A stretch of 64,000 nucleotides of DNA, taken from assembly GCA_965262915.1 (NCBI GenBank), contig OZ253564.1, forward strand, positions 4,224,001-4,288,000, in the 5' to 3' direction. This stretch comes from Candidatus Spongiisociaceae bacterium (lineage in GTDB: Bacteria; Actinomycetota; Acidimicrobiia; Spongiisociales; Spongiisociaceae). The notes beneath the pieces were generated by a model. The model saw only the letters and a program-made list of their open reading frames with translations. It ran no database searches and was not told the DNA's origin. The translations under genes were made by a program, and so were the position numbers. Below are positions 959-9,320 of this stretch, one piece after another. Position 1 is the stretch's first letter; each line of letters begins with the position of its first letter.

Positions 959-1807
959 TCAGGTATGAGGGGAATGCCGGACGACCGTCACCGCCACGTC
1001 CTCGAACCCCACCCTGATCGGCGCCTCCGGTTTGTGCACCGTCACCTCCACCCGGATGACCCGCCTGTTCTCGAGAACCAGGTCCGCCACCCGCTCGGCG
1101 ACCGTCTCGATCAGGTTCCACTGCTCGCCCGACACCCGGCGGTGGATCGCCTCCGCCACAAGCCCGTAGTCGAGTGTGTTGGAGAGGTCGTCGGTGCGGG
1201 CCGCCGCCGACACGTCCAGCCGGGCCATCACATCCACGACGAAGGTCTGGCCCTCCGCCCGCTCCTCCTCGGTCACTCCGTGGCGGGCCGGTATGCGAAG
1301 ACCCTTCAACGTGATCGAGTCGACCGGAGCGCGGGCGTAAACCGGACCCGACCCGGGTGGGTCCTCGCCCGCACCTCCGGACAGTAACCGGAGGACCGAA
1401 TGGCGAATCTCGGAAAGGTCAGCGCCGATCTCATCCAAGACCTGAGCGGCGACACCGTCCCCTTCCCGAATCAGGCCCAGCAGGATGTGCTCGGTACCGA
1501 TGTAGTTGTGCCCCAACTGCAGAGCTTCGCGCAAGCTCAACTCCAGTACCTTCTTGGCCCGGGGGGTGAACGGTATGTGCCCGGAGAGGGACTGGTGACC
1601 CTTGCCGGTTTTCTCCAGCACCTGGCTGCGCACCGAATCGAAGCGAATGCCGAGACTCTGGAGACCGCGGGCCGCCACGCCCTCTCCCTCGTGGATCAGG
1701 CCCAACAGGATGTGCTCGGTACCGATGTAGTGGTGGTTGAGCAGCCCGGCCTCTTCCTGTGCCAGCACCACCACCCGGCGGGCGGGGTCGGTGAAACGTT
1801 CAAACAC
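959..1807 (-). CDS. folB: Fusion of ClpC N-terminal double Clp-repeat domain and dihydroneopterin aldolase
   Basis: aa 1-145: MFERFTD...YIGTEHILLGL (twice), PFTPRAKKVLELSLREAL. aa ~163-282: HGVTEEER, TLDYG, LIETVAE, VHKP (FolB). One continuous ORF between folP and folK. Confidence 0.93.
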   Translation of the reverse strand: MFERFTDPARRVVVLAQEEAGLLNHHYIGTEHILLGLIHEGEGVAARGLQSLGIRFDSVRSQVLEKTGKGHQSLSGHIPFTPRAKKVLELSLREALQLGHNYIGTEHILLGLIREGDGVAAQVLDEIGADLSEIRHSVLRLLSGGAGEDPPGSGPVYARAPVDSITLKGLRIPARHGVTEEERAEGQTFVVDVMARLDVSAAARTDDLSNTLDYGLVAEAIHRRVSGEQWNLIETVAERVADLVLENRRVIRVEVTVHKPEAPIRVGFEDVAVTVVRHSPHT

Positions 1808-1858: not shown

Positions 1859-2338
1859 TCAACCCCCCGCCGCCGGAATCAGCGCCCGGGCGCGGGGACC
1901 GAGCGGTCTCCCGATGATCTCCTGTATGACCATGGCGGCGATCCGTTGGTCCTTCACCAGGCCCGCGAACACCACGTACCCGGCCAGGATCCCCGCCACC
2001 GCATCGTCCACGAAGTCGCGGTGGACCAGTACCCGGGCGTCCGGGCGGGCCAACGCATCGTGGATGGTGGCGAAGGCCAGGTCGACGGCGGACCGGTCGG
2101 AATCGAGATCGACCGGCGCCACGTGCACCTCAAGGCCCGCCCCCTCGTAGCTGTTGACGTTCTGGGCTCCCGGAAGCAGCGACACCACCGTCGTGAACTC
2201 CTCCTCCACCAGCCAGGCGATCTCCTCCTCGCGGCGCACCCGACGGTGCTGGAATCCCTGACCCCCGATCCGCGCCGAAGTGGCCAGCCGACTCCCGATC
2301 ACCCAGGCAAAATCACGCGGCTTCAGTCCTGTCTTCAT
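1859..2338 (-). CDS. Hypothetical protein with a tyrosine/dual-specificity phosphatase-like pattern lacking the catalytic Cys
   Basis: FAWV..LA...R.GG, TTVVSL and VLVHRDFVDD in place of VLVHCxxGxxR, followed by AGY. Overlaps the folP 3' end. Confidence 0.65.
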   Translation of the reverse strand: MKTGLKPRDFAWVIGSRLATSARIGGQGFQHRRVRREEEIAWLVEEEFTTVVSLLPGAQNVNSYEGAGLEVHVAPVDLDSDRSAVDLAFATIHDALARPDARVLVHRDFVDDAVAGILAGYVVFAGLVKDQRIAAMVIQEIIGRPLGPRARALIPAAGG

Positions 2339-3185
2339 CACCATCACCCATCTGACGCACCATAGCGTCAGCCAGAGCCAACGCGTCGCGGGTTGTTGCA
2401 ACATCGTGAACTCTCACGATCGAGGCGCCGTTCATGGCACAGATCCCGGACGAGACGGCTGTCACCACGTCCCGCTCCTCGACGGACCGCCCGGTGAGCG
2501 CACCGAGAAAGGCCTTCCGGGAGGTCCCCACCAGGACGGGCACGCCGTCGGCGGCCAGCACCGGCAACCCGTTCAGCAGGGCCAGGTTGTGCGCGATCGT
2601 CTTGCCGAATCCGATGCCGGGATCGATCGCCATCGCCCGCCGGTCGACCCCCGCTGCTTCCCCCGCCTCGATCCTGTGCCGGAGGTATCGGCGGATCTCC
2701 CCGACCACGTCGTCATAGGTGGGATCCTTCTGCATGGTGCGCGGGTTGCCGCGCATGTGCATCAGGACGACGCCTACCCTCGACGAGGCACACACCTCGG
2801 CCATTCCCTCGGCTTCGAAGGCGGTCACGTCGTTGACCACCACCGCTCCCGCCGCGACGGCCTCCGCCGCCACCTTCGGCTTCGAGGTGTTGATCGATAC
2901 CCGGACGTCGCGGGCGGCCAAGCGTTCCACCACGCCCACGACCCGCCGCAACTCCTCCGCCTCCTCCACCTCATCGGCGCCGGGCCGGGTGGACTCACCG
3001 CCCACATCCACCAGATGGGCGCCCTGGTCCCGGAGGCGGAGACCGTGGGCGACGGCGCGGTCCTCGTGGAGGAAGCGCCCCCCGTCCGAAAAGGAATCGG
3101 GCGTGGCATTGACCACCCCCATCACCAGCGTGCCCTCGTTGGGATCGAGGACCGCCCCCCGAACGTGCCATGTCGGTCGTTTCAA
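2313..3185 (-). CDS. folP: Dihydropteroate synthase
   Basis: [47 protein letters not shown]. The TTG start at 3185 overlaps the folE TGA. Confidence 0.95.
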
Positions 3186-3763
3186 GCGCAGACCCGGTTG
3201 ATAAGCGCGAGAGCTTCGGCCCGCGTGGCGGGGTTGCTGCGGAACTGGCCCCTGACCGCCGAGGTCTGGGTCACCGTGCCTGGTTTGCCGACACCACGCA
3301 TCTCCATGCAGAGATGCCGGGCCTCCACCACGACGAGCGCGCCCCGGGGCTCCAGCACCTCCATGAGCGAATCCGCCACCTGGGTGGTGAACCGTTCCTG
3401 CATCTGCGGTCGGCGGGCGAACCCCTCCACCAGGCGGGCCAGTTTGGAGAGACCCGTGACCTTCCCGTCCGGGACGTACGCCACATGGGCCTTGCCATGG
3501 AAGGGTAAAAAGTGGTGCTCGCACATCGAATAGAAGGGAATGTCACGCACCAGCACCATCTCCTGATGGCCATCGGCCACGAACACCCGGTACAGATCCT
3601 CTCGCGGATCACGGTGCATTCCCTCGAATACCTCGGCAAACATGCGGGCGACGCGGGCGGGCGTATCGATCAGACCCTCCCGGCCGGGGTCCTCGCCGAT
3701 CGCCTTGAGTATCTGACGCATGGCGTCTTCGATCGCCTGCTGATCGATCACCCAGCCCGACAT
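3182..3763 (-). CDS. folE: GTP cyclohydrolase I
   Basis: [48 protein letters not shown]. Confidence 0.96.
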
Positions 3764-3768
3764 GGGTT

Positions 3769-3936
3769 CTAGTGGTCCGTCTGTGAGACGGAGGCGTGGC
3801 ATGCGCCGCCGACGGGGTACCGCGCCAGGCCCGCCGACGATGGCGTACCCGCAGCATACGTCGAGGAGGCGGAACGCAGCGAAGGGCGTCGCCGGCGTGC
3901 AGGGCATGGTGTGTTGTCTTCCAGGCAGACCACTAG
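3769..3936. mobile_element. MITE-like element (family B), 168 bp, ~21-bp imperfect terminal inverted repeats with CTAG at both ends
   Basis: Left end ctagtggtccgtctgtgagac (3769-3789). Right end gtcttccaggcagaccactag (3916-3936). Homologous to 29482-29557. Confidence 0.7.
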
Positions 3937-3974
3937 AGGGTGCGCGCATGGGCGGACGCGGCCGCCCCTATCCA

Positions 3975-8304: not shown

Positions 8305-9320
8305 GATTCGGGGGCCTTGATCTCCTGGCGGGTAGGCAAGGTATCGGGCGACTCCCATGCCCGGTCGACCGCCGACCAACCGGCCCGCTCCGCCACATGG
8401 AGGATGAAGTCCCTGCCCTCCTCATACTGGCGCATCTTCATCTCCAAGCCGGTGAGCCTCAACAGCGCCGCCACCCGCGGGTTGTCGCGGCGCCGTGCGA
8501 CCAGGGAGGACATCCGCCGCCAGGTGACCAGATGCCGGGCCCCGATCCGATCCATCACCACATGGCCGTGGCCCTCCAGCAAGGACATCAGTGCTTGGAC
8601 CTTGTCGAGTTGCCGACGCTCGGCCGGAGTGGCCACCAGGCCGGGGAGCCCGGCCTCGTCCAGCCGGAACCGACCCTCCGCGCCGGCCCGCCGGATCTCC
8701 GACACCACGACCGACAGCCGCGATTCATCGGTCTTGGAGAGGGACACGAGAGTCGTGGCCAGATCGAGGAAGTATTCCCCGAGCCACGGCACGCCGACGA
8801 ACTGAAACCGGTGGGTTGCCTCGTGAAGCGCCACCCAGAACCGGAACTCGGCCGGACGGAACTGGTGCTTGCGCTCGAACTCCAGAATGTTGGGCGCCGG
8901 CAGGCAGATCTCGTCGCCGCCCTCAGCCGAGGGAAGGACCAGCTCGTACTGACCGAGCACCCGGCGGGACAGCACCCCCAGCAGAGCGCCCATCTCGATG
9001 GCCATCATCCGTCGCGAGAGACTGCCGTCGACGCCTGCCTCCACCAACCGTCCTTCCACCTCCTCCTCGACCGGTCTCATCAACGTCGAGAAGAAGGCCA
9101 GGTTCCGCTCCACCCATGCGATGCGATCGATGACCGCCACCGACGGGTCACCATCCCCGGAGAGCCCGGTCTCCTCCTCCACCAGGGCACAGGCCCGGTG
9201 GACCAGTCCGGGCGCCATCTCCTCGAGAGCACGCCGGTGGTAGCTCTCCGCCGGAGGGTAGGAACCGGCCAGCCGGGCGGCGACACGGACCGCCAGCTCC
9301 AAATGCAACCCTTCGGTCAT
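8283..9320 (-). CDS. Zinc-dependent metalloprotease (DUF2342 / Zincin_2)
   Basis: RRVLGQYE, WVALHEATHRFQF, MSLLEGH, KMRQYEEG. This gene usually sits upstream of tilS in actinobacteria. Confidence 0.88.
   Translation of the reverse strand: MTEGLHLELAVRVAARLAGSYPPAESYHRRALEEMAPGLVHRACALVEEETGLSGDGDPSVAVIDRIAWVERNLAFFSTLMRPVEEEVEGRLVEAGVDGSLSRRMMAIEMGALLGVLSRRVLGQYELVLPSAEGGDEICLPAPNILEFERKHQFRPAEFRFWVALHEATHRFQFVGVPWLGEYFLDLATTLVSLSKTDESRLSVVVSEIRRAGAEGRFRLDEAGLPGLVATPAERRQLDKVQALMSLLEGHGHVVMDRIGARHLVTWRRMSSLVARRRDNPRVAALLRLTGLEMKMRQYEEGRDFILHVAERAGWSAVDRAWESPDTLPTRQEIKAPESWLARVG

Follow-up and report, generated by a model that had tools for sequence, protein, structure and literature searches.

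Several antibacterial cyclic peptides, and the degraders derived from them, dock on the N-terminal domain (NTD) of ClpC1, and free NTD paralogues such as ClpC2 blunt the compounds directed at it. Mycobacterial ClpC2 is described, in those portions of two papers available to us, as a partial homologue of ClpC1 that serves as an antibiotic sponge, an autorepressor and a sensor of phosphoarginine (pArg) (PMC10030653; PMC13345244). Here we describe a gene from a Candidatus Spongiisociaceae bacterium (Actinomycetota; Acidimicrobiia), located in a 64,000-nucleotide (nt) stretch of contig OZ253564.1 (assembly GCA_965262915.1, positions 4,224,001 to 4,288,000; hereafter the window). A single open reading frame (ORF) at 959-1807 on the minus strand was found to encode a protein of 282 amino acids (aa), in which a ClpC-type NTD is joined through a linker to a dihydroneopterin aldolase (FolB) domain. 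We put at about 0.4 the probability that this protein forms a catalytically active FolB oligomer and presents several accessory NTDs able to bind ligands, which would act as a ClpC2-like sink.

Pfam analysis of the 282 aa identified Clp_N in two stretches (E 3.1e-32) and FolB (PF02152) at residues 165-275 (E 3.1e-35; 121.5 bits against a cut-off of 31.8), and found neither AAA+ modules nor an M-domain nor any other family. Lacking AAA+ modules, the fusion is not a ClpC. The NCBIfam equivalog for folB, TIGR00525, was matched with 111.6 bits against a cut-off of 72.15. Residues 1-144 aligned without gaps to solved chains of actinobacterial ClpC1 NTDs (E ~1e-67), so that both can be described in a common residue numbering; F2, F80, K85 and E89 of ClpC1 are all present in the window fusion, as are both IGTEHILLG repeats. 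Residues 163-277 aligned, again without gaps, to residues 3-117 of the solved mycobacterial FolB chain 1nbu. The catalytic or substrate-binding residues given for mycobacterial FolB in the accessible text of one paper, Glu22, Tyr54, Glu74 and Lys99 (PMC11328599), correspond in this alignment to E182, Y214, E234 and K259 of the fusion, and were invariant in 34 aligned fusions. By every sequence test run the fusion is a FolB, for which aldolase activity and assembly into a tetramer or octamer are predicted. The coordinates and all sequence-level statements of an initial annotation of this DNA, including the single ORF, the two repeats and the FolB catalytic residues, proved correct.

The same annotation had considered a stand-alone FolB unlikely, and this view was upheld. 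A GTC codon precedes the FolB Asp, and no in-frame ATG, GTG or TTG was found in codons 125-166. The first later candidate start is TTG codon 167, which lies inside the first strand of FolB, and no Shine-Dalgarno-like sequence was found upstream of it. The linker differs among relatives in both length and sequence. AlphaFold2 (AF2), run as a monomer model only on the alignment of 34 fusions, returned predicted local confidence (pLDDT) values of 85-95 for the NTD, below 50 for the linker (residues 145-161) and about 70-80 for the FolB domain, with a predicted template modelling score (pTM) of 0.52. Given this pTM and the low confidence in the linker, the model points to two independent domains that are not packed together.

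We then compared the NTDs of 50 distinct fusions (54 collected, 4 duplicates removed), counting truncated sequences wherever the residue in question was covered. The mean identity of these NTDs to the ClpC consensus was 0.83. Residues of the peptide groove were kept almost without exception, i.e., F2 in 45/45, F5 in 45/45, Q17 in 47/48, F80 in 49/49, K85 in 48/49 and E89 in 50/50, whereas the adjacent positions P79 (32/49) and P82 (35/49) were variable. The initial annotation had named F2, F80, K85 and E89 as apparently conserved residues of the cyclomarin site, a statement that extends, invariantly or nearly so, to the whole set. As far as the consulted sections of the two papers go, cyclomarin binding depends critically on F2, F80 and E89 (PMC10030653), and K85 is a contact of all the cyclic peptides as well as a resting-state contact in Staphylococcus aureus ClpC (PMC12583610).

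Selection was assessed from pairwise ratios of replacement to silent substitution rates (dN/dS; Nei-Gojobori), the deeper pairs being near saturation. Pairs of fusion NTDs gave values of 0.12-0.47; for the same pairs of genomes, the NTDs of ClpC gave 0-0.10. The two parts of the fusion gene had medians of 0.21 (NTD) and 0.245 (FolB domain), and the NTD had the higher value in 19 of 55 pairs. Judged by these ratios, purifying selection acts about as strongly on the NTD as on the FolB domain. Neutral evolution of the NTD, which the initial annotation had seen as a threat to its proposal, is therefore not what was found, and the ClpC NTD is far more constrained. When the window NTD was compared with clpC, a rough estimate for the fusion branch came to about 0.65, provided that all replacements fell on that branch and silent changes were split evenly.

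That the locus is an artefact of assembly or annotation, i.e., a clpC/folB chimera or a frameshift, has a probability close to nil. Short-read contigs do break within the NTD, at motifs common to clpC and to the ClpC of other organisms, and read depth is many-fold higher at the NTD motifs common to clpC, a rise to be expected of a repeat. The genome, however, is one closed contig of 5.05 Mb, and Logan contigs from two DNA runs of two other studies cross the FolB/linker/NTD junction with 0 differences (X3 record 17, 700-1499; X8 record 27, 1025-1499), which answers the concern about a chimeric join raised in the initial annotation. The same architecture was present in 11 of 41 relatives, in 43 of 120 proteins listed by homology search and, with the same junction, in the 50 distinct sequences, and divergence of the NTD and the FolB domain was coherent. 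Some of the homologues, from Acidimicrobiia or Actinomycetota metagenome-assembled genomes (MAGs), are named "dihydroneopterin aldolase" at NCBI; the database records of the fusion carry the aldolase name only. A piece with 0 differences (1281-1411) also crosses the junction in run X17, whose RNA label is only a guess and which we did not count as expression. The metatranscriptome run X19 yielded pieces with differences, confined to conserved NTD motifs and the upstream ORF, and none over the FolB part.

The fusion is the only FolB of the closed genome (one match). Three ORFs in the genome carry Clp_N: the fusion, a ClpB-like frame of 866 aa and a separate full-length clpC, the existence of which the initial annotation had left to be confirmed. 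This clpC encodes 826 aa (Clp_N x2, AAA, UVR, AAA_2 and ClpB_D2-small) and starts about 7 kb from the fusion. Homology between the two genes runs from 4 nt upstream of the start codon to about codon 150, and by this alignment the 5' end of clpC is the source of the fusion NTD. A duplication that also took along the clpC promoter or leader was ruled out, as the homology reaches only 4 nt upstream of the start and includes no copy of the strong clpC GGAGG.

The window NTD is 85% identical to that of the cell's own ClpC. ClpC NTDs of 35 relatives were near invariant, while fusion NTDs differed far more. Within one genome, the synonymous divergence (dS) of the fusion NTD from clpC was about 0.2 in G000, G018 and G039 and 0.31 in G004 (family, genus and kinship labels such as f1, f5, f8 and G000 are codes), compared with 0.7-1.0 or more between fusion NTDs of different genomes. 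Along its length, the window NTD is, by identity to clpC, a mosaic of converted and old segments (Table 1), and the best matches of ORF nt 341-450 are other fusions (80.0% and 77.3%). When the length of the longest uninterrupted match at variable sites was tested by permutation in 11 genomes, the result was significant for the window (p = 0.0012), G039 (p = 0.0022) and G004 (p = 0.038), and non-significant for the other eight. Between the window and its three nearest fusions, dS was 0.69-0.77 in the NTD and 0.32-0.37 in the FolB domain; a roughly twofold excess in the NTD fits imported clpC sequence. We read these patterns as those of an old fusion whose NTD has been overwritten repeatedly, in tracts, by the neighbouring clpC. 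That the low dS to clpC arose solely through separate recent duplications, genome by genome, is not favoured: the 3' segment is closest to other fusions, fusions of family f1 have common derived 3' states, and one junction type occurs in 11 genomes. In G004, the ClpC NTD (L024) and the fusion NTD (L015) have in common residues that are rare among the 35 ClpC NTDs, namely Tyr in LEYSL and Ser and Thr in VRSTVITLL, and the ClpC NTD of this genome gave the highest dN among the ClpC NTD pairs compared. In G004, conversion may thus also have gone from the fusion to clpC.

The distribution of the fusion was surveyed with a probe of 136 residues spanning the junction, for which an end-to-end match was required. 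The probe was matched in 2 of 401 genomes of a class-wide sample and in 15 of 401 genomes of an order-wide sample; the latter belong to three families, so that the architecture does occur in other Acidimicrobiia, a point that had been left for checking. The fusion is present in 9 of 29 genomes of the window's family (5/8 in its own genus, 1/3 and 3/12 in two other genera), in both genomes of family f5 (G028 and G039, both unpublished) and in 4 of 7 genomes of family f8. None was found in the three largest families of the order (125, 124 and 41 genomes). In relatives that lack the fusion, the same upstream ORF is followed by a gene for a plain FolB of about 120-130 aa. In a tree of FolB domains (31 rows, 120 columns), fused and plain forms were interleaved, implying at least six changes of state, two of which are forced by well-supported branches. 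The plain FolB of G013 nests among two fusions, and upstream of its gene (L060, G013:C34, ~505-615) we found 23 codons of an NTD start that run into a stop and are not in frame with FolB, and linker-like sequence between these codons and FolB. G013 is thus a deletion derivative, and at least some of the patchiness therefore reflects loss. On the evidence of the tree and of this remnant, the NTD has been lost repeatedly, in several lineages and even inside one genus.

All 11 genome-derived fusions have one junction type, in which the NTD extends to ..LLSGGxGEDP, the linker spans 10-25 residues and FolB begins at DSITL. A second type of Clp_N-FolB protein was seen in P0084 and P0091, where the junction differs and a near-ClpC-identical NTD reaches further into the ClpC linker. 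The FolB domain of these proteins is 41% identical to that of the window and falls in a clade of marine Acidimicrobiales MAGs. Both come from contigs shorter than 3 kb. At 24 genome loci of that FolB clade, no NTD was found within 4 kb of FolB, and the junction peptide was not found upstream of FolB at the three closest loci. P0084 and P0091 could represent an independent recent fusion or a chimera.

How such a protein might act can be sketched as follows. One polypeptide would provide both the cell's dihydroneopterin aldolase and a folded copy of the ClpC NTD on a flexible tether of 17 residues. Assembly of FolB into its usual tetramer or octamer would place four to eight NTDs on each particle. 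Having no AAA+ motor, the fusion NTD could presumably only bind, and it would compete with the NTD of ClpC itself for ligands such as hydrophobic or cyclic peptides (e.g., cyclomarin and rufomycin) and unfolded segments. Expressed constitutively, the particle would then act as a multivalent sink, a role similar to that of the sponge assigned to mycobacterial ClpC2 in the part of PMC13345244 available to us. If the NTD were an accessory trait, useful only in some settings, its frequent loss would be explained.

Several observations weigh against this proposal. The NTD is missing in 20 of the 29 genomes sampled from the family; within the genus of the window, 3 of 8 are without it. With a dN/dS of about 0.2, roughly ten times that of the NTD of ClpC itself, it is far less constrained than the latter, and in close pairs without visible conversion its values exceeded those of the FolB domain (0.36/0.24, 0.47/0.21, 0.34/0.18 and 0.37/0.15). 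Moreover, conversion from the conserved clpC lowers the dN of the NTD, so that these figures are upper limits on constraint and part of the apparent constraint could be mimicked. The inducible control of ClpC2 has no counterpart, there being no operator-like site within 6 kb. In the protein P0044, the NTD contains an internal partial duplication (the segment GH..F.PRAKKVLE occurs twice) and has Ala at the motif residues Glu31 and Thr105; it is visibly degenerating, with the frame still open. Finally, the two pArg sites are unevenly kept. According to the excerpt of PMC12583610 that we consulted, two glutamates, Glu31 (E32 in that paper) and Glu106, are crucial for these sites. The window protein has both. 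Among the distinct fusions, Glu31 was kept in 45/48 and replaced in 3/48, and Glu106, the pArg1 determinant, was kept in 33/50 and replaced in 17/50 (16 Gly, 1 Ala). The capture of pArg, one of the decoy functions suggested in the initial annotation, is therefore not the conserved function. As far as residue conservation indicates, one functional surface, the peptide groove, is held, and one pArg pocket is decaying, a combination that is hard to obtain from tract-wise conversion or folding selection alone.

This combination matters for the possibility, which we consider somewhat unlikely, that the NTD is a passenger without ligand function. Here, a duplicated 5' end of clpC placed before folB would have captured its translation; translation of the essential FolB would keep the frame open, selection against misfolding together with conversion would maintain the sequence, and loss would follow lineage by lineage. 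Such a history accords with the absence of a FolB start codon in codons 125-166, the 96-99% identity of the conversion tracts to clpC of the same genome, the deletion remnant in G013 and the at least six changes of state on the FolB tree, as well as with the loss of Glu106 in 17/50 fusions, the internal duplication in P0044 and the tenfold difference in dN/dS from ClpC. It does not explain why the surface residues K85 and E89 of the groove are invariant or nearly so beside the variable P79 and P82, a contrast on which tract-wise conversion is silent, nor why the NTD and the essential FolB domain have similar dN/dS over 55 pairs. Furthermore, the fusion persists in three families though synonymous sites are near saturation (dS 0.7-2.5), and since deletion is evidently easy, a useless domain of 160 residues would be expected to be rarer.

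A regulatory tether, by which the NTD links FolB to the ClpC system so that the level, oligomeric state or location of FolB responds to proteotoxic stress, appears rather improbable. The candidate contacts would be the M-domain or AAA1 surface of ClpC (as for the NTD in resting-state ClpC), an adaptor (e.g., ClpS), or proteins marked by stress. A gene for ClpS is present in the genome, K85, the resting-state contact of S. aureus ClpC in the portion of PMC12583610 seen, is kept in 48/49 fusions, and mycobacterial FolB is described in passages of two papers as switching between tetramer and octamer with ligand (PMC11328599; PMC9937910). Yet no evidence for an interaction in trans was found, the pArg1 site is not conserved, many close relatives have plain FolB, and neither the leader nor the promoter of clpC was carried over into the fusion gene. 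The broader coupling of folate synthesis to proteostasis offered in the initial annotation likewise found nothing in its support. More doubtful still is a fusion at the gene level only, with internal initiation or proteolysis in the linker yielding a normal FolB and a free NTD: the linker is predicted to be disordered and relatives G001, G028 and G031 have an in-frame ATG in it, but the window has no in-frame start in codons 125-166, and TTG codon 167 lies inside the first FolB strand without a Shine-Dalgarno-like sequence.

The fusion lies within a folate operon. The minus-strand order is ftsH, folE, folP, a 181-aa ORF, the fusion (as folB) and folK, and no sigma-70-like promoter or minus-strand terminator-like site was found between 300 and 4200. 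Past the window start, the same strand carries genes for a DUF2520 protein, panC, a type III pantothenate kinase and lysS, followed by the full-length clpC; a polyprenyl synthase is encoded on the opposite strand directly before clpC. The coordinates of the features are collected in Table 1.

Table 1. Features of the Clp_N-FolB locus (window coordinates).
Feature	Position	Strand	Remarks
Whole fusion ORF	959..1807	-	GTG start 1805-1807; TGA stop 959-961; 282 aa
ClpC-type N-terminal domain, residues 1-145	1373..1807	-	Two Clp_N repeats, eight helices (Pfam, gapless ClpC1 alignment, AF2)
Linker, residues 146-162, AGEDPPGSGPVYARAPV	1322..1372	-	Predicted to be disordered; lacks an in-frame start
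FolB (dihydroneopterin aldolase) domain, residues 163-282	962..1321	-	Catalytic E182, Y214, E234, K259
Gene-conversion tract 1, ORF nt 1-180	1628..1807	-	95.6% identical to own clpC; nt 77-165 without difference
Divergent segment, ORF nt 181-240, loop between repeats	1568..1627	-	80.7% identical to own clpC
Gene-conversion tract 2, ORF nt 241-340	1468..1567	-	99% identical to own clpC
Old segment free of conversion, ORF nt 341-450, helices 7-8 and linker start	1358..1467	-	76.4% identical to own clpC
Conserved 181-aa ORF between folP and fusion	1859..2404	-	Ends 51 nt before fusion start
folP (Pterin_bind) and folE (GTP cyclohydrolase I), upstream operon members	2313..3949	-	Pfam; start codons not fixed
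folK (HPPK), 176 aa	423..953	-	Probable ATG 951-953, 5 nt past fusion stop

The 181-aa ORF is kept at the same place in distant Acidimicrobiia, and no family match was found for it in Pfam or NCBIfam. By protein-language-model features it groups with unnamed marine actinobacterial clusters (0.97) and, more weakly and as a lead only, nears families resembling protein tyrosine phosphatases (PTP) and dual-specificity phosphatases (0.92). A phosphatase-like gene before folB could serve the dephosphorylation step ahead of FolB.

Other proteins with ClpC-like NTDs came to light in the course of these searches. The best matches of a whole-library search included P0122, P0124, P0123 and P0126, with 8, 15, 9 and 8 Clp_N repeats in 1064, 1762, 776 and 665 aa, respectively. 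These consist of tandem ClpC-like NTDs only, equivalent to about four to eight full NTDs, and we know of no description of them. Multivalent display of NTDs thus exists elsewhere, a point in favor of the proposed sink. In a relative of the same family, L055 (G011:C174, 364-1116, plus strand) encodes a ClpC-like NTD, 64% identical to that of the window, fused to a RidA/L-PSP-like domain; its Pfam match to Ribonuc_L-PSP (E 5.1e-6, 26.9 bits) lies slightly below the cut-off, and the ORF is cut by the contig end. Members of the RidA/L-PSP family are oligomeric. Relatives that lack the fusion encode small NTD proteins (L056, L057, L058 and L059), comprising a protein of 197 aa whose NTD is followed by a Cys-rich tail, one of 250 aa in which the tail is hydrophobic and membrane-like, a ClpC2-resembling protein of 248 aa with a helix-turn-helix-like N-domain before the NTD, and one of 227 aa whose NTD contains an insertion. 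A bolder and rather speculative extension would make the FolB oligomer a constitutive high-avidity scaffold of four to eight NTDs that captures natural peptides aimed at ClpC or other ligands of the NTD, with the fast-evolving decoy also feeding variant NTD sequence, through gene conversion, into the essential clpC 7 kb away, and would unite it with the poly-NTD and NTD-RidA-like proteins in a class of multivalent NTD decoys whose scaffolds are oligomers or repeats.

Were an oligomer-mounted NTD to act as proposed, it would constitute a second, structurally different route to an NTD sink. The fusion is in any case a handy object for asking what the ligands of actinobacterial NTDs are in cells without a known arginine kinase, and together with clpC it provides a clear case of an essential gene and a partial paralogue held in step by gene conversion. 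Even if the NTD were a passenger, the locus would still offer a clean natural series of domain gain, concerted evolution and deletion on an essential enzyme.

A Clp_N-FolB fusion had been unfamiliar to the authors of the initial annotation, and we too found none described in the literature; the sections of the ClpC2 papers open to us make no mention of one (PMC10030653; PMC13345244), though the ClpC2 alignments in the supplements might list further NTD architectures. The fusion belongs with the ATPase-less ClpC-NTD paralogues, a known kind, and it is the Clp_N-FolB pairing itself that was not found in print. In its C-terminal 120 residues, the fusion corresponds end to end to stand-alone FolB (1nbu, 1dhn), with the same four catalytic residues and the same folP-folK position, but it differs by an N-terminal extension of 162 residues. 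That FolB tolerates being part of a larger polypeptide is also seen in FolB-FolK (Streptococcus pneumoniae DHNA-HPPK, chain 2cg8) and in eukaryotic FolB-FolK-FolP, as reported in the available text of PMC9937910 and PMC4224340. In those proteins, consecutive enzymes of the pathway are attached at the FolB C-terminus, whereas here a chaperone domain from outside the pathway is attached at the N-terminus. A double Clp_N without an ATPase occurs likewise in plant ClpT1/ClpT2 and in Clp_N-only proteins (chains 4y0b and 4y0c, by molecule name); ClpT1/ClpT2 are, however, distant from the fusion NTD (E 1e-6 to 1e-8) and have no enzyme partner. Their role is that of assembly factors of the ClpP core.

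The closest parallel is with mycobacterial ClpC2, which resembles the fusion in that a ClpC1-NTD-like domain without AAA+ modules exists beside a full-length ClpC, in that the equivalents of F2, F80 and E89 are kept and, by analogy, in the proposed titration of NTD ligands, so far as the accessible portions of the ClpC2 papers describe these features (PMC10030653; PMC13345244). According to the same excerpts, the NTD-like domain of ClpC2 lies at the C-terminus, shares about 40% identity with ClpC1 and is preceded by a DNA-binding and dimerizing N-domain, and the gene is inducible through its own operator. The NTD of the fusion is instead N-terminal, 85% identical to the cell's ClpC, joined to a metabolic enzyme, encoded in a housekeeping operon and subject to gene conversion with clpC. 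No N-terminal DNA-binding or dimerization domain was found by Pfam in the fusion, where the NTD begins at residue 1 and FolB is the sole other domain. The operator CGTCAAC-n5-GTTGACG, as given in the part of PMC10030653 consulted, had 11 matches in the window, all with three mismatches, and none with three or fewer within 6 kb of the fusion, the nearest lying at 8469. Lacking both the DNA-binding domain and the operator, the fusion is not a ClpC2, but it may work in the manner of the ClpC2 sponge.

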